Positions 36,405 to 63,423 of a DNA stretch of 64,000 nt are shown one piece after another. Origin of the DNA: Heteronotia binoei (lineage: Eukaryota); assembly GCF_032191835.1 (NCBI RefSeq), contig NC_083235.1, forward strand, positions 65,286,001 through 65,350,000, given 5' to 3'. Under the pieces are notes generated by a model that had not been told where the DNA came from, searched no databases, and saw nothing but the letters and a program-made list of their open reading frames with translations. The position numbers and the translations under genes were made by a program. How positions within the stretch are numbered: position 1 is the stretch's first letter; each line of letters starts with the position of its first letter.

Positions 36405-38990
36405 TAGGGATGGACATAAACTGGGGAAAATGTGGTTCATGGTTCATGACTGAACTACAAATCAGACTGAAATGGGAAGTTCATTTGCGAACCAAACCCA
36501 TTCACGGCCCTGCACACCCCAGTGAAACAGACTGCAGTCCCTTTAAACATGGTTTGTGTCACGTTCTCAGGGTGCAGGCAGGTAGGAGTCCAAAGCCAGT
36601 CCAAAGTCAAGTCCGGGAAGTCAAGCAGGAGCCAAGTCACCAATGCAGAATCACAAACCGGAATCAGAAGTCAATGTCCAAAAGCCAAAAGGTCAGGGTG
36701 TGAAGGAAATCAAGCAGGTCAGGATCAGGATCAGGAAGGAGCGTGGATGAAAGCCAGAGAATAAACTTGTTGCATGCGAGCAACATCAAACTGTACTTGC
36801 TCGTGATGGTGTTGGATCTGGAGCGTGACCGGGTGGATCTCCTGGGTCACTGGACTGGAGCGGACGAGGCGCCCGTCAATGGCTTCAACCAGGGTCAGGG
36901 TGTCTTTGTCCTGCACCGGGATCTGATGTTGCTTCACAAAGGCCACATTGATGAAGCAGCGGGCGGCCTCGGAGTCGACCATGGCGTAGACGAACAGCCA
37001 ACGCCCATTCGTAAAGCCGAGTGTGAACAGTATGAGAAACAGGCCCTGGCCGGTAACGTAGGATTCAGGGGACCTGGCTAGGTGCCCCAAGTCAGGGGGT
37101 CCACTCAGACTTGGGGCTGGTCTTTTACTGGTGGCGGTGGCACGGTACTGGGCTGGGTGCGCTTGGCGGGGCAGCCAGAGGAAAAGTGCCCCTCCCCTCC
37201 ACAGTACAAACAGAGATTCTGTGAGCGGCCGTGCAGCCCCGAATTGCATGGGCTCGGGGTCGTCAGTCTCGGAACTGGTGTGCATCGGGGTTGTCACCGT
37301 CGCTAGGCGGCGGGGCAGCTGAGAGGGACAGGCGCTGCTTGGTGGCAGCCTTTCAGGCGGCCATCAATGCGGAGACACAGCGTGATTAGGCCTTGCAGCA
37401 TGGCCGGTCGGTCTACTCGTGCCAGCTCATCAAGGATTTCATCAGCCAGTGCCTCCATATACTGATCCATGAGGGCAGCCTCATTCCAGGGAAGGCCAGA
37501 AGCTTGAACTCAGTGGAGTATTGGGAAACCGAATCTCTACCCTGCTTCAGGGTCCGAATCTTCCGATTGGCGGTGGCTGCTTGCTGGGGGTTAGCAAAAG
37601 CTACCGCCATGTGATCCAGAAAGTCAGTCAGCAGGGGTGATGGGGCTAGAAGCAAGGGGATAGCCCATTTAGCTGCCTGCCCCTTGAAGAGGCTGACAAT
37701 GAAGCATACCTTGGTCTTGTCGTTGGGGAAGTCTCTGGCACGTAATTCAATATACAGTTTGCACTGTGCCAGGAATGCAGGAAACTCCTCCACCTTCCCA
37801 GCAAACTTCTCTGGGGGAAGCACCAGGCACTTGGGTGGGGCAGCGACAGTGGCTTGCTGATGTTGCAGGTGAGCCACCATTTGAGTGAGGTGCTCTACCT
37901 GAGTGAGCAAGGCTGCTAGCTGCCCAGAGCTTCTGCTTGCCTCCTCATCCATCTTGTGGATTGAGTGTGTGTGGAAGCAATCTGTCACGTTCTCAGGGTG
38001 CAGGCAGGCAGGAGACCAAAGCCAGTCCAAGGTCAAAGTCCAGGAAGTCAAGCAGGAGCCAAGTCACCAATGTAGAATCACAAACCGGAATCAGAAGTCA
38101 ATGTCCAAAAGCCAATAGGTCAGGGTGCCAAGGAAATCAAGCAGGTCAGGATCAGGAAGGAGAGTGGATAAAAGCCAGAGAATAGACTTGTTGCTTCCAC
38201 AAGGTTACCAGGTCCTGGGTGGGAGCTATATGGAAGTCTCAATCAGCCTGCTCCCTGAGTGGCAGTGACTCTGCTAGAACTCAGGGCTGAGAGATCTGAA
38301 GCATCGGCATGCCTCATGTCTTCGCTCTGAAAGTTCTTTCCAGAGCCTGCTTCGAACTCTTGAGATGGGAGGAGGAGAGCTTGGAAGAGATTGATCGTCA
38401 ACAGCTGACACTGGTGCCTGGAGAGTGATTGATGGGCCAGCTGCTGTTTGTTCAGCTGAGGAACTGGCTGGCAACTCTCCCAGCTCCTGTTAACCCTTCC
38501 AACTCCTCCTCGTCAGGGCTCATGACAGTTTCCAGAAAACAGCTGTGCAATGGGGAGTAGCCTGCTTCCTGCTGCTCAGCTGTTTTGGGCTGTTTTCTGC
38601 AGTCCACTTAAACTTTAAAGGAACATTAAACTTTAAAAGAACTGTAGAAGACAGCCCAAAAAACACAGCTGAATGGCAGGGAGGTGCTTCCATCTGGTCA
38701 GCTGTTTTGGGCTGTGTTGTGACTGCAGCCTTAAACAGTTGAGAGGCGGGTCATACCTTCCCACCACTCCGCTGTATTTGCAGCTTTCACAAGGAACAGA
38801 AATACCATTTGAAGGGACTCAGAGTCCCTTGAAACCCCTGCTTTCTTCTCTATCCATAAACCACCACAAACTGCTTTAAAACTTAATGGAAATTTGTGAT
38901 GGTAGACTTGTCACAAACTTCTGTTCATGAACCACAAACGGGACAAAATTTGTGAATTTTGCTTCATTATTCAGTCTGTGCCAATCCCTA
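36405..38990. mobile_element. Old hAT-type non-autonomous element hosting the Gypsy insertion
   Basis: TAGGGATGGACA...TGCCAATCCCTA termini; 8-bp flanks atcttaaa/gtcttaga (6/8). Confidence 0.55.
36557..38527 (-). mobile_element. Internally deleted Ty3/Gypsy (sushi/PEG10-like) LTR retrotransposon: 5' LTR, gag, protease, partial 3' LTR
   Basis: 5' LTR 37983-38527 (TGTCA...TGACA). The 3' LTR remnant 36557-36773 is about 95% identical to the matching part. Gag-like ORF (PEKFAGKVEEFPAFLAQC...KTKVCFIVSLFKGQAAKW); CCHC knuckle CLYCGGEGHFSSGC at 37171-37212; protease-like AMVDSEAARCFI (D codon 36974-36976); flanks gtttg/gtttc (5-bp TSD, 1 mismatch). RT, RNase H and integrase are absent. Confidence 0.92.
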
Positions 38991-39763: not shown

Positions 39764-40833
39764 TTAGATTCTAGTGCTATCTAACAAAGGGAGCTTTCAC
39801 TCTCAAAAGCTTATACCTCAAAAATCTCATTGGCCTCTAAGGTGCTGCCTAACTGTCTTAAACGGAGACTCCCTTTTGTTTGCCCATGCACACTGGTAGG
39901 AAACGGCAACTTTTTGTGTTTCTTTTCATGAGGATAAGAAAAGCTAGATCACTCCTCTCTATTCAAAGAATGCAATTACTTTTTACAAAAAATGCTAACG
40001 CTTTAATAGCGTATTACTCAAAAGGAAGACCATCTTTTTTTTACTTTTTTGGCTTTACAAAAAGGTCGTGTGTGTCATCTTCAACTCACATGCAGATTTA
40101 CCAGTAAATAAAGTTGCCCCCACTGTATTACTTGCAGGCTCTGCTGGGGGTGGGGTGCTAAACAAGTGGATGTGCCTTTCATTAGCTGGGCCCTGCAGGT
40201 TGGAAGCACTGCGGTATGCACTTTCTCTGTGTGTGCTTTTTGTGGCTGAACCACTGGAAAACGTGAAGGGAGGCCAGCCTCTACATCAGTTGGGAAGGGG
40301 CCGGAAGCAGCCTGTGCAACCCAGCTGATCGGGATGGATGAGAAGGAAGTTAGGAAGGAGATGGAGGAAGTGAAGAAAACTCACCTGTGCTGCACAAAGC
40401 AAAGATGAAGGAAGAGTCTGTAGGGTCTACAGACAAAGACGGAGGAGGGAAACTAAACAACTTCACTTCATACTTACCCAAATGACCCCTGGGTAGTACC
40501 AAGAACATCAGCAGCCCCAACAAGCCCTGAGCACATGGAGAGTTTTACATGGCACCAAACTGAGGAAGCATGCTCAGATCATGAGCAGGTAGGGGAACTG
40601 CAACAGGTGAAAAGAACCCCTTTTTCTAGGACTACACCATGAGAGGAGGAAGAGGAGGAGGTGGCAGTGGGGTTCAAGGGATGGGAGTAGATCGGGAAGA
40701 TATAGGGTAGGTGGAAGGGGGCAGCATAACTTTGCTGGCTGGCCAGCCTCTTTTGGGGCTGGTCATTCTTTACATATCCAGGCTCTCTTCCCCATCTGTA
40801 GGGAGCCTTTGAATTAAAAAAAGACAAACTTAC

Positions 40834-40962
40834 CAGGATGATTCCTGCCTGGGCTGTAGCAAATTGCATTAGGGTCCATTCATACTTGTTGGGACCCCAC
40901 ATTCCTAGTCGGTCACCTTTTTTCAAGCCAAGGGCCAGAAGCCCCGTTGCTGCCTGCTCTAC
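40834..40962 (-). CDS. ACSF2: ACSF2 exon 3
   Basis: ctacag|...|gtaagt; 129 bp; VEQAATGLLALGLKKGDRLGMWGPNKYEWTLMQFATAQAGIIL. Confidence 0.97.
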
Positions 40963-42012
40963 CTGTAGTATGCAAAAGAAATGCAGTCTAAGCAACTTGA
41001 GCTAGATGGTTATAGGAAAACAGCATAAGAAAAATCAATGTCCTCGTCTACGCATTGATTATCTTGATGATACTGAAGGATTAGATATTGCCGTTTCTGA
41101 ATTGGCTTGAACTCCCGCAGCTTTCATTTTGAGATGAAATTCTGTTTGAGGCTGCATCCAGTTTTTAGTCCTGGTGCTTTAATGTACGTCTTTTGAAAAC
41201 GTTTGCGATTCCTTCTGCCTTTACAGCATCTAGCCATGTGTCTTCAGGATAGAATGGACCAACAAGAAATAAATAACCACAGGCCGTTGGTCAGAGCCCT
41301 TCTAACATTTCCAAGGATATTCCTGCCTTCCAGCCTCTTAGTGCCAAGTCTCTGTAAACTTTGGTCAAGTCTGTACTGTACTTTGGCTCTAGCAAAGAGC
41401 CTTCTGGGTAAAGCCTCTCTGGTATGCCAATGCTGCTAGCTAAACCTCTCCCCTACCCCCCTCCTTCTCCTTTGTTATGTAGCCTTGCTTTGAAATGGGA
41501 ATATGGGAAGCTATAATCTGTGCCTTCTCAGGCCAAGCGTCAGGGGGAGGTTGGAGCCAGAGAACGCTCAAGGCCAAAGCCGGTCTGAGAAAGAAATTGT
41601 AACATCAATGTGTGAATGTGCCCTGCATAGTGCCCCTCCCTTAAGAATCCCTTTGAAGTGTACCTTATATGATGGCATTGTACTGTATGATCTCTAGTCT
41701 TTCAATTTGAACCTAGCCAAGCTCATCCTTATCAATAAACTAGCAACTTTGTTTCAACAACGACTCGTTATTGAATTTGGAGACTTGACACTTAGCTCAC
41801 CACCAATGACGTTACACATACAACAGAACTGAATCCAAAGCTGCACAGGTAGACAGTGCAGTTATTTTTTGTATAGGCATGATTTTGATGACTTAAATAT
41901 CAGTCTGCCTGCACCATTGTACAAAAGTTGTCTTCATCAGCAGCCTTATGTAGAGCACACTGCAACAGTTACCAGGGTATGAAAGACAGCGGAAAGCTAG
42001 AGAATCAGTCAT

Positions 42013-42624: not shown

Positions 42625-43990
42625 TCTAATTTAATTTAATATTTGGATTTTTATCCTGCCAAAGCAGGCTCAGGATAGATAACAGCATGAAATACATACA
42701 TTAGCATCATTGATCACAAAATGGAATCAATAAAACAATTTACGATTCACAATCTAACAGCAATAAAACCAGATGACAGTGTATCTTAATCTGCTCCAAC
42801 CTACTAATAGTGATTAATTTACAGGCGTTTAATAGAATAAACAGTATAGAAACAGTCTGGGCCAACATATAGCAGGATCAGAGTAAAGCAGATGTCTGCA
42901 TCCTCAACAAGCAGAATCAAGCAGATGTCCGCATCCTCAATAAGCAGAATCAAGCAGATGTCCGCATCCTCAACAAGCAGACTCAAGCAGATGCCTGCAT
43001 CCTCAACAAGCAGAATCAAGCAGATGCCTGCATCCTCAACAAGCAGAATCAAGCAGATGCCTGCATCCTCAACAAGCAGAATCAAGCAGATGCCTGCATC
43101 CTCAACAAGCAGAATCAAGCAGATGCCTGCATCCTCAACAAGCAGAATCAAGCAGATGTCCGCATCCTCAACAAGCAGAATCAAGCAGATGTCCGCATCC
43201 TCAACAAAAATGTAACTGAAAAGTCTGACAGAAGAGCTCCATCTTACAGACCCTGTGGAACTGCAAGAGATCCCACAGGACCCTGATTTCTGGGGGGGGG
43301 GGGGGAGCTCATTCCACCAGGTAGGTGCCAGAGCCAAAAAGGCCCATATGGAAAGCCAGCACAGTCTGCAGAGAACCAGCTGGATATGAACACGTACAGG
43401 CGTCATCAACAGCGAGCGCGCTGCCGCATTCTACACCAGCCAGATCAGGTGCAAGGGTAGGGCAAATTACAATAGTTTAATCTGTAAGTGACCATCACAT
43501 GGATCACTATAGCCTCATGGGAAGAGAGGCAGGGAACCAGCTGCCAGATCTGCCAAAGGTGGAAGACGGCAGACTTGGCAGCTGTTGTGACCTGGGCCTC
43601 ACTAGTTAAGGCAGCATCCAGCATCACACTTAGATTCTGGACCTTGGACACAGGTGTCAGAAACACCCCATCCAAAGTCAGGAGCTGGATTTCCCCACCT
43701 ACATCCCCACGATTCAGGTACAGGACCTCCATCTTCAATGGGTTCAATTTCAGCCGACTCCACCTCAACCAACTAGCCACGGTCCCCCAATGTCCAAAAT
43801 GTCTGGAGCCAAGTTCAGCCGGGCATCCATTAACAGATACAGCTGGGTGTCATCTACATATTGATGGCACCATGAGAAAGGCAGAGTACAAATGGAGTAA
43901 ATAAAGGAGACTGAACAGCATTCCAAAACCCAGCTGTAAACCTGAATGAAATGAATACCAACACTCAGCTTCATTAAAGAGCGTCTGGGA
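42625..43990 (-). mobile_element. Degenerate L2 LINE with a minisatellite in its 3' region
   Basis: HQYVDDTQLYL, LKLNPLKMEVL, YRLNYCN, APTWWNELP motifs; ends approximate. Confidence 0.8.
42887..43207. repeat. 33-bp minisatellite, about 9.7 units
   Basis: Unit aagcagatgYctgcatcctcaacaagcagaatc, few variants. Confidence 0.97.
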
Positions 43991-60266: not shown

Positions 60267-62284
60267 ACTGTAATCCCCGTTTAGGCCTCTATTAATACAG
60301 AAAATTTCCAAGGCATTCTTCCAGCACCAATCTCTATGCCTGCCTGAACATAACAACTCTGAAATCTCTGACAGAATGGCTGCTTTGTCAAAGGTATTGT
60401 TTTTGGAATAGCAGTTATCCTGGGATCTAATGTTTGATTTCAAATACGTTATTGCTTAAATATCAATTTTCCGTTCTGCATATTGCTCCGAATAATGCTA
60501 TGTAGTTCTGTTACAAAATCAAATACACATGCATTTGTTCACAAAACTTATAAAACTTTTGTCTTCATTGATGCAAACATTTCTTCATTTCTATTGCTAT
60601 TACCTCTCTATTTTAGTGCCTGTATGATAAACTGAAATTTAGCAGATGACACTTCCAGCGTACACACAGTGATAATAAACATTTGACCTGATTAATTTGT
60701 TTGTCAGTAATTACAATAACAGGGGTGGTGTGGCAAGGAGCAGGATCCTGCAGGTTTCTTGTGGTCAGAGATCCTCCCTTCTAAGAACCCTTCTGCTGCG
60801 TGCGCGCACACACACACAGCTGTCTTCCCTTTTTGACCCTAGAACGGACAACGACCTTGGCTATATGCTACCGCTCTCGTTCAAGGGCCTGACTGGAGAG
60901 GGTCCAGAGCAATTTCCCAGCCCCTCCTCCAGCAGCCCCCTCTTGTCAGGGCATGAGTACAGGACCCAAAGGATTTCAGTAGAGTGGACATTTTAAAAAT
61001 CAACCCATTAACCAAATACTTTAATGAATAAAAGAACAGGTGAAAATGGAGAAAACCCCCAACGTAATAAGTATGCTATAAACACATGGGACAAAACTCC
61101 CACAGAAAGAAGCCAATTGGAAAACTATACAATTACTGGACTTCTAGCTCTGTTTCGATACCTGGTCCTCTTTAAGTCAGCCCTCCTTCCCCATTGCTTA
61201 GATGAGCCTCTTGGCTACTGAGGTCCTGGAAGAGAACAATGTCCCTCTCTGGGTATGGTTTTATATGTTCTTTCACAAGGTTCTACCTCCTTGGTTAACA
61301 TTTTTCCTCCAATTCCACCAGGGTGGAGAATTTGCAGAAAAATCCAGAACCGTACAAAAAAATTACATTGGGGGGCTTAAAAACCCAAATGATCAAAAGG
61401 AGCACTTCTAACTTTAAGAGACACATTTTATATGTGCTCTTACTAGGCAACCACAAGAAGCTTGGTCTCTGTCGGTAAAAGCCAGCAGGAGGCAGAGGGC
61501 CTTTTCAGAGGACATTTTGGCCTTCAAGGGAGGACTCATTGGGGGTCAGGCCCGGTGGCAGCCACTGGGTGACTTGTGTGGTGGTTAGAGTTTCAGACTA
61601 GGACCTCAAGTTCCCATTCTGCTGTGGATACTCACAGGGTAAGCTGGGGTTGGTTCAATATTCTCAGCCTAGTTTACCTCACAGGTGGGGGGAATGGCCT
61701 TTAAGAGCACCTGGATACCTCCTGTTGGGGTGAGATGGCCTGTCCCCACACCTAGCCAGCTCACTAACAGAAAGACTGTGCCTGCACTGTTGGCAAAGTA
61801 ATTAAACACAGCAACAACGCACTACACAACTTGATTAAAGAGTAGGTAAAGGTTTATTTAGGAAGTAACACAGGAAAGAGGAGAAGATAAGACCAACAAA
61901 AGTTTATTCAAGGTATAAGAAGTGCAGGCACACTTCTTCAGATACATTCAGACCAGCATGGCTGCCCACCAAGAAAGAGGAGAGACAGAGATAGGTTCCT
62001 AAGTACGTATATATCTAACCAAGAGAGATTGAGTGTAGCCCTTCTGAGAAGAAGGGAGAAATTGCCCTGAGTAGCAATCTGGAGACGAAGGAATGACACT
62101 TAACAGGAGACAGAAGGTACTTTCCTCACTATCCTATCTAATTGTCTTCTTGCTGCCCCCTTCAGGGTCTTCTCCTCTTCTTTGTAGAGCAGACATTGCC
62201 TTTTCCAACACACACAAGGCAGGAGAGGTGGAGACCAGCCAGCCTGAAGTAAGATATGAGATGCAAGGCTGGGAGATGGTAACC

Positions 62285-62832
62285 TGTCATGGGTACTGGG
62301 GATCCTGCAGGAGAAGCTGAGCCTGCAGAAGAAACTGTGCCCCTGCCTCCTGCTGGAGAAGATCCAAGCCCCCCTGCCTCGCCCTCTCGGGTGGCTCGTG
62401 TGCGTGACCGCCTTCGTCAGGACCTCAGGGATTGGAGGAGGGCGGCATGCTCACGAGCAAGACGCTCCCTGAGCCCTGAGTTTTGAAAGGATTCTGGCCC
62501 TTCTAGGAGTGAGGATGCTTGAGTCTCAGCAGGATCCTGGCTGCCTCTCTGAGCCAGCAATTAGCCCAAATGGGCAACAGACAGCAGAGGGCTATATAGC
62601 TGTGGGCTTTGGGAGGAGGCTTTGTGGAAGCAACTAGTCACTTACCTGACGTTCTAGCATCCACTTCGGCTTTTGGCTCTGACTTCTGGACCCCCTGACT
62701 TCGGCTTCTGAACCTCTGACCTGCGATACCTGGACTGTGATTCGGTTTTGGCGCCCTGGACCCTCTTTGCTCACCGGCTACAGACCTTGGACTGCCCCTG
62801 GACTTTGCCTGACCCGGCCCCAGCCCGTGACA
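62285..62832 (+). mobile_element. Solo LTR of a related, diverged Gypsy family
   Basis: TGTCATGGG...CCCGTGACA termini; 548 bp; TATATAG 62593-62599 then TGTGGAAGCAA 62623-62633 as in the 37983-38527 LTR; shared U3 peptide; no clear TSD (taacc/tggac). Confidence 0.85.
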
Positions 62833-63423
62833 TGGACCCCTGGCTCAGCCTGAGTGAGGTGAGCCAGACACTGACATCCAGCCTAGCCAAGTCTTATGGA
62901 ACGCAATGCAATGGCAGTACCTGAGACAAGCCCCACACAAGACTAGGCAGACAGTAACACCTGGCTCAGCTGACAGTGCCGGATTAAACCCCGTGGAGGC
63001 CCCCAGGCAGTCGAAATCTCAGGGGCCCCCTTGCAAATTATCTCAGAGTTGGAGCGCCCGCCCCACCACCCACAGACAGTGGCCCCGCTGCAGCCAGAAG
63101 GCACTCTGTCAAAAGCCCCTTTCACAAAGCTGCAGGGGAGAGGCAAATTTGGTGACGATGCCAGCAGCAGCCGCACCAGGCAAGTCGGGCAAAGAGCAGC
63201 TCAGTTGCTGGCCGGGAGGACTGCAAGCAGGGGGAAAACGGGGGGGGGGACTGACCCAGGGCCCCTAAAGGCATGGGGACCCATAAAATGGTGCCTTCTC
63301 GGCCTATTTGTTAATCTGGTCCTGCATCTGAGCCTCATGCAAGGCAATGCAAACCGTGTCCCTGGCCCAATGGAATCCAGCAAGAGGCAAGGCAGAAGGT
63401 GGGAGCTCAGCAGTATATACTGC

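Follow-up and report, generated by a model that had tools for sequence, protein, structure and literature searches.

A reading frame at the start of U3 in Heteronotia binoei chromovirus LTRs very probably encodes the C-terminal tail of Pol

We find that the small ORF at the start of U3 in two LTRs of the window (the whole stretch of 64,000 nucleotides of Heteronotia binoei DNA analyzed here) is very probably the C-terminal tail of Pol. A first-pass annotation had proposed either an LTR-encoded accessory microprotein or the final part of a longer ORF that continues into the 3' LTR; the second option is the one borne out, the ORF being pol, and most young elements have no pol stop before the 3' LTR, so that the frame crosses the polypurine tract (PPT) into U3. 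We consider it likely that the ORF forms the last 65-90 residues of Pol, with a helix for import or DNA binding and a host-docking end for integrase.

The window LTRs and their elements

Both LTRs derive from Gypsy elements, as had been annotated, and more exactly from self-priming chromoviruses of the Tf1/sushi type (Table 1). The LTR ends of families A and B fit the Sushi att consensus TGTYANR...CNTNACA (table 3 of PMC3601003), and the 5-bp target duplication is found. A 10-bp duplex between GTGGAAGCAA and the PBS is present in the minimum free energy fold of a family-B element, with GTGGAAGCAA located ∼30 nt past the TATA box, from whose position the transcript start is predicted; self-priming is described as a feature of the Tf1/Sushi group (PMC6317226). 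The ORF lies upstream of the TATA box in LTR-A and LTR-B and is therefore located in U3, in agreement with the first-pass annotation. Full-length family-B copies of ∼5.5 kb contain gag and an overlapping pol in the -1 frame, with the order PR-RT-RH-IN-SH3-chromodomain (by Pfam; family A by homology). The chromodomain at the integrase C-terminus (PF00385, E 2e-14; top PDB matches are HP1-type chains) is found in families A-D. Families C and D are two further young chromovirus families with longer LTRs (L191, L185) and a related primer-like motif, GTGCTGGCAAC, behind a TATA-like stretch. The polyadenylation motifs AATAAA and ATTAAA are both absent from the A and B LTRs over their full length and from the C and D LTRs over their first 670 bases (3' LTRs of L105, L187, L191, L185, L234, and L122).

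Table 1. Features of the two chromovirus LTRs and of element A in the window
Feature	Position	Strand	Remark
LTR-A	37983..38527	-	5' LTR of an internally deleted family-A chromovirus; TGTCATG...CGTGACA
Very probable Pol/integrase C-terminal tail, family-A U3 copy	38274..38523	-	End RSLSPEF-TAG
TATA-like box CATATAG	38226..38232	-	Downstream of the ORF
GTGGAAGCAA, LTR-A	38191..38200	-	Predicted transcript 5' end and self-primer; pairs with PBS, family-B fold
Self-priming PBS GATTGCTTCCAC	37971..37982	-	
gag, first open stretch	37413..37952	-	DUF4939, Retrotrans_gag, Ty3_capsid; broken further on
gag end and protease region	36774..37363	-	Protease recognized from its similarity to family-B Pol
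3' LTR of element A, remaining 3' part	36557..36773	-	
LTR-B	62285..62832	+	Solo-like family-B LTR without target duplication
Very probable Pol/integrase C-terminal tail, family-B U3 copy	62289..62486	+	Pro/Glu linker, Arg-rich predicted helix, RSLSPEF-TGA
TATA box TATATAG, LTR-B	62593..62599	+	
GTGGAAGCAA, LTR-B	62624..62633	+	Predicted transcript start and self-primer

Element A carries a deletion from the protease region, which has no Pfam hit, to the middle of the 3' LTR, and its flanks (GAAAC/CAAAC) resemble a 5-bp target duplication that differs at one base. At 40579-41001 on the minus strand, an exon encodes an AMP-binding domain (Pfam E 7e-10), and element A is probably intronic to an acyl-CoA synthetase gene with which it shares its orientation. 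LTR-B, flanked by TAACC and TGGAC, has no target-site duplication (62280-62837), which most solo family-B copies have, and was possibly formed by recombination between two insertions. Other arrangements were seen in passing: three family-B junctions 4,924 bases apart share the same PPT variant in a head-to-tail array (L093-L095, G000:C1:26945261-26955125), and a family-A LTR directly adjoins the 5' LTR of a full family-B element (L039/L074). At 42879-43207, the window contains ten copies of a 33-nt unit (96% alike) that is open in several frames.

The reading frame itself is as the first-pass annotation described it. Both LTRs start with TGTC-ATG, the ATG being at 38523 in LTR-A (minus strand) and at 62289 in LTR-B (plus strand). 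The LTR-B ORF is intact and encodes 65 amino acids; in LTR-A the ATG frame ends after 23 codons, and the part from RVRSRL to the terminal RSLSPEF lies in another frame. The aligned C-termini share 16 identical residues, 11 of them with different codons, and end at the same place in different stop codons (TAG in LTR-A, TGA in LTR-B). The local peptide score is 97, whereas none of 5,000 residue shuffles scored above 54, and the tail frames form the best of the 36 frame pairs (98), the next one (51) being their antisense shadow.

At least ∼2,500 candidate copies per LTR exist in the 2.6-Gb genome, 40 of which were scored for each. The frameshift near the start of the LTR-A ORF is private to the window copy; intact family-A copies have 82 codons. 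Among the 30 closest family-A copies, the 82-codon frame is unbroken in 16, stops early at one of three recurrent codons (57, 67, or 73) in 11, and is otherwise broken in 3, window copy included. The SPEF-type end is reached in 25 of the 30 closest family-B copies. A cysteine common to both window ORFs is an arginine in most copies of the two families, so this identity is probably parallel CpG decay.

Pol across the polypurine tract

A pattern combining the PPT with the LTR start returned 1,639 matches in the genome, compared with 46 for the control, and the listed junctions are spread along contig C1. In one natural young copy (L105), an unbroken frame of 1,228 amino acids runs from PR-RT-RH-IN-SH3 and the chromodomain through the G-run and into the LTR, with GGGDSVMGAG at the junction and RSLSPEF at the end of Pol. 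When the first 30 pattern loci (family B) were inspected, a chromodomain was detected upstream in 25 and not in the other 5. The junction is in frame with the LTR ORF in 16 of these 25, and 7 of the 9 remaining junctions sit in the frame expected from one G fewer. Young elements gave a similar picture: from 61 elements fetched whole, 33 have LTRs that are at least 99% identical, of which 21 are in frame, 10 are one G short, and 2 are two short. An in-frame pol of at least 1,225 amino acids is present in 18 copies of the 61-element set, in which the family-B label takes in 7 C/D and 2 A copies. The families are young in this genome, with many copies that have identical LTRs and an unbroken pol.

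In families C and D the G-run is shorter and stable, and 17 of 20 junctions are in frame with the same spacing as in B (143 nt); this count shares 7 copies with the 61-element set, and 10 A-type loci of the 30 were skipped. The old family A has two G-runs and no uniform junction frame: 8 of 27 junctions (one of the 8 being a B-type copy) and 5 of 18 are in frame, and no pol frame of 1,100 amino acids occurs in 18 copies. For this family, we thus infer the pol fusion from homology and from individual copies, L122 among them. A search with a pattern for TGTYACG-type junctions found 49 matches, compared with 431 in the control, and thus no further families by this pattern.

About a third of the young B junctions have one G fewer, which puts pol out of frame. 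The loss of a G in the PPT run recurs in most subfamilies and may be slippage or assembly error. In one B subfamily (L091, L188, L190, L205, and one more) all five junctions are one G short; in the copies inspected, pol stops a few codons into the LTR and the tail frame is mostly intact. Such elements would then either do without the tail in cis, obtain it in trans, or reach it by slippage, and since this subfamily spread with its tail out of frame, the tail may not be needed in cis. We also considered that pol in family A stops at a TGA overlapping the ATG, as in stop-restart coupling, and dropped this idea because only slipped copies have the TGA in the pol frame and because this stop is absent from families B-D.

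Selection and the terminal motif

The first-pass annotation regarded the U3 frame as conserved at the protein level, and our comparisons establish purifying selection between families. In single natural copies, with an alignment hand-anchored at the stop and one gap in A, dN/dS over the last 35-36 codons is 0.17/1.59 for C-D, 0.33/2.25 for B-C, and 0.53/1.47 for A-B, giving ratios of 0.11-0.36 where measurable; dS is saturated in the other three family pairs. The 17-26 residues identical between families in frame drop to 4-13 in shifted frames, and each of the six family pairs has its lowest conservation at third codon positions (0.22-0.47 versus 0.66-0.83 at second positions). A predicted Arg-rich helix and the end S-P-x-[F/Y/W]-stop are common to the four families, with SPEF, SPEW, SPEY, and SPAY as the ends found in the H. 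binoei genome, followed by three different stop codons. The kept features are thus the Ser-Pro and an aromatic residue that closes the protein. A second ORF overlapping in a shifted frame was discarded as a candidate (68 codons in B, just 1, 28, and 16 in A, C, and D).

Within family B, a net length change off the triplet register is seen in 7 of 100 LTRs in the ORF versus 28 of 100 downstream, and whole triplets predominate among the length variants that ORF copies share (-21 in 11 copies, +9 in 9). For variants held in common, the tail omega is 0.63, the lowest of the six frames and not significant (p = 0.12); the values for RT (0.05) and for IN/chromodomain (0.15) are far below. Changes confined to one copy are close to neutral in the ORF (omega 0.80, p = 0.24). 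The linker is loose, and selection keeps only the frame, the helix, and the end.

A search with chromodomain plus tail among proteins of 675-2,149 amino acids returned 55 Pol-like proteins, mostly from teleost fish. Fourteen of them end in S-[P/E]-x-[F/Y], a pattern with an internal frequency of 0.0008. Ten of these have SPEF, SPEY, or SPVF after a GG[DNS]V[TMR] junction resembling the lizard GGDSVM, and the other four end in SDRSEEF. The motif-bearing proteins occur in several branches of an integrase tree, a quick tree of the search hits. The S-P-x-aromatic-stop end is thus kept in fish Pol, and the junction peptide suggests that the fish tails, too, lie in the LTR. The motif is absent in the other 41 homologues, many of which are partial, spliced, or frame-shifted gene models beside motif-bearing rows; one group among them ends ∼46 residues past the core of the chromodomain and thus apparently does not reach the tract. 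All ten fish tails have an RGR-type basic patch directly after the chromodomain and lack the long helix, whereas the lizard families lack the patch and have an Arg-rich segment in U3 instead.

Among shorter proteins, we located one gene model of the same family, with gecko as its source label, that ends inside the chromodomain; no other protein of this family turned up in the database. Neither window peptide belongs to a Pfam family. A PDB profile search matched chromodomains alone, with none on the tail alone among the 60 matches listed, and the best value in the ESM Atlas (0.76) is below lead level. Searches of the open literature turned up no account of the vertebrate tail, of its location in U3, or of its motif; Poulter and Butler 1998, Butler 2001, and Repbase/Dfam may mention the overlap. 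The conserved terminal motif is apparently undescribed, and its sequence is already inside fish gene models as Pol.

Possible roles of the tail and comparison with known systems

An AlphaFold2 model (18-row alignment) contains the chromodomain, a low-confidence linker, a helix (residues 112-136, core pLDDT 84-91), and a 7-residue coil end, with an overall pTM of 0.40. The predicted layout past the chromodomain begins with ∼55 disordered residues, continues with an Arg-rich helix of 25 residues, and closes with a free end of 7. We propose that pol reads through the PPT into U3 of the 3' LTR, so that every LTR carries a copy of the tail. The tail would be made with Pol via gag-pol frameshifting and would stay on mature integrase, where a flexible tether would present the basic helix for import or DNA contact and the end motif to a partner. 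The copies in 5' and solo LTRs, including both window copies, would be passengers upstream of the TATA box. For a host-docking or import role as such, we see the chances as roughly balanced.

The serine of the terminal motif may be phosphorylated by a proline-directed kinase, and the resulting phospho-S-P-x-F/Y/W-COOH could bind a host reader, for which tandem BRCT proteins of DNA repair are the best-matching candidates. Abraxas has pSPxF at the very end of its 409 residues as a BRCT ligand (PMC4747905); MDC1, 53BP1, PTIP, and MCPH1 recognize the carboxylate of the phospho-tetrapeptide that ends gamma-H2AX (PMC8651625); and internal BRCT-binding motifs are predicted for ERVK integrase (PMC8303831). 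The lizard tail matches these ligands as a pattern, with Ser at the fourth-last position, Pro next, and an aromatic residue with a free carboxylate last. A difference lies in one young B subfamily whose pol is intact: its Trp ending is a poorer fit for a pSPxF reader. Together with the subfamily whose junctions are all out of frame, it counts against a strict, essential role. We regard a tandem BRCT as the specific reader as improbable. Similarly speculative, and rather unlikely as a whole, is a scheme in which the tail, as a gamma-H2AX/Abraxas-tail mimic, would recruit MDC1, BRCA1, MCPH1, and PTIP to steer or finish integration from fish to lizard, with PPT slippage silencing the tail in a third of new copies and thousands of solo LTRs scattering ATG-led copies across the genome.

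A role inside the element, less likely than host docking or import yet a serious competitor, would make the tail an Arg-rich, phospho-switched segment for nucleic acid binding or particle assembly, with its terminal aromatic residue in a pocket of integrase, RT, or Gag. The Arg-rich helix adjoins S-P sites, a basic RGR patch takes its place in the fish relatives, and the tolerance of Phe, Tyr, and Trp at the end would suit a generic hydrophobic pocket. We presume a likeness to the hepadnavirus core tail here. A fixed partner is suggested instead by the exact C-terminal motif, which persists between distantly related integrases as the linker changes. Given its pTM, the model does not allow any folding of the tail back onto the chromodomain to be deduced.

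Far less probable is a U3 accessory microprotein of the sag/nef kind, translated separately from the ATG at LTR nt 5 of a subgenomic or read-through RNA, alone or beside the Pol fusion. This ATG has a G at -3 in all four families of the genome, the full frame is kept in most close B copies (25/30) and in 16/30 A copies, and the subfamily with five out-of-frame junctions keeps the ORF in most copies seen. Such a protein, the first option of the first-pass annotation, is disfavored by the in-frame pol fusion, which is found in most young elements and is modal in three families, and by the fish gene models that carry the end as Pol. The residue at the ATG position is Met in just one of the ten fish tails (Thr in seven, Arg in two), and the ATG falls inside the att consensus TGTYANR (PMC3601003). 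As the 3' att is CGTGACA, the ATG is plausibly a CpG-decayed ACG. A peptide search with the 65-residue ORF product gave two candidates, none at E ≤ 1, and no free-standing homologue of 35-114 amino acids, and the near-neutral single-copy changes likewise speak against a separate protein.

RNA reads bear on this point in part. In three raw runs with the same species label (∼6% of each run, unstranded, tissue not stated, reads 92-99% alike), the whole B element is covered, with LTR depth above most of the interior. The B-element reads have no joints, and their loose ends at the LTR boundaries are as solo LTRs in host RNAs would give; the loose ends at the LTR start thus place solo LTRs in host-driven RNA, which would favor separate translation. 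Family C has almost no raw reads, and this very low depth revealed no splice joint. The spliced or subgenomic RNAs envisaged in the first-pass annotation were accordingly not seen in the shallow reads on two full elements (B and C), which also gave no usable start or end sites.

A very improbable reading is that a U3 motif acting as DNA or RNA, such as an enhancer site, underlies the conservation and the open frame is a by-product: an 11-nt core, AGCCCTGAGTT, is identical in both window LTRs, the Ser codon is AGC in all four families, and amino acid constraint within family B is weak, but the codon-position pattern contradicts this reading, the Leu, Pro, Glu, and stop codons vary synonymously, and Phe, Tyr, and Trp are exchanged at the end.

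Reading the ORF as the tail of Pol removes a false accessory gene: the overlap of pol with U3 gives these LTRs their protein-coding appearance. Because the motif has just four residues and a free C-terminus, synthetic peptides also make nuclear entry and site choice of vertebrate chromoviruses testable. Coding sequence that overlaps U3 is familiar from MMTV sag and lentiviral nef, which are separate ORFs with their own mRNAs. As in those viruses, the sequence is duplicated in both LTRs; the lizard ORF differs in being fused to pol. Mammalian genes of the Rtl1/Peg10 type derive from the same group of retrotransposons (PMC4340606).

Short targeting motifs with a linked NLS are found at the integrase C-terminus of Ty1 and Ty5 (TD1 in a bipartite NLS, binding AC40, and the TD5 hexapeptide, binding Sir4; PMC7459421). 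They share with the lizard tail a short motif, a poorly conserved tail, and basic residues. Ty1 and Ty5 are Copia-type elements with internal motifs and known partners, in contrast to the candidate partners of the lizard tail. The vertebrate Tf1/sushi chromoviruses (V-clade: Sushi-ichi, Amn; table 2 of PMC6317226) have the same PR-RT-RH-IN-chromodomain order, self-priming, TGTYANR...CNTNACA ends, and 5-bp target duplication, and a homologous tail end is part of the fish Pol models; the lizard tail exceeds theirs in length and has the 25-residue Arg-rich helix in addition. The closest arrangement is found in plants, where the gag-pol ORF of CRM group A (CR motif) and of some Reina chromoviruses extends into the 3' LTR (PMC3059260, PMC3605345). 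In CRM group A, too, the integrase C-terminus is encoded past the PPT in the 3' LTR, as a proposed targeting domain. CRM elements are centromeric and have no classical chromodomain, which the LTR part replaces, whereas the lizard elements, likened to them by arrangement, keep a classical chromodomain upstream of the PPT and have the LTR part as an added tail. Taken together, a selected, LTR-encoded integrase tail with a terminal motif shared from fish to lizard would be a variant on this known arrangement.
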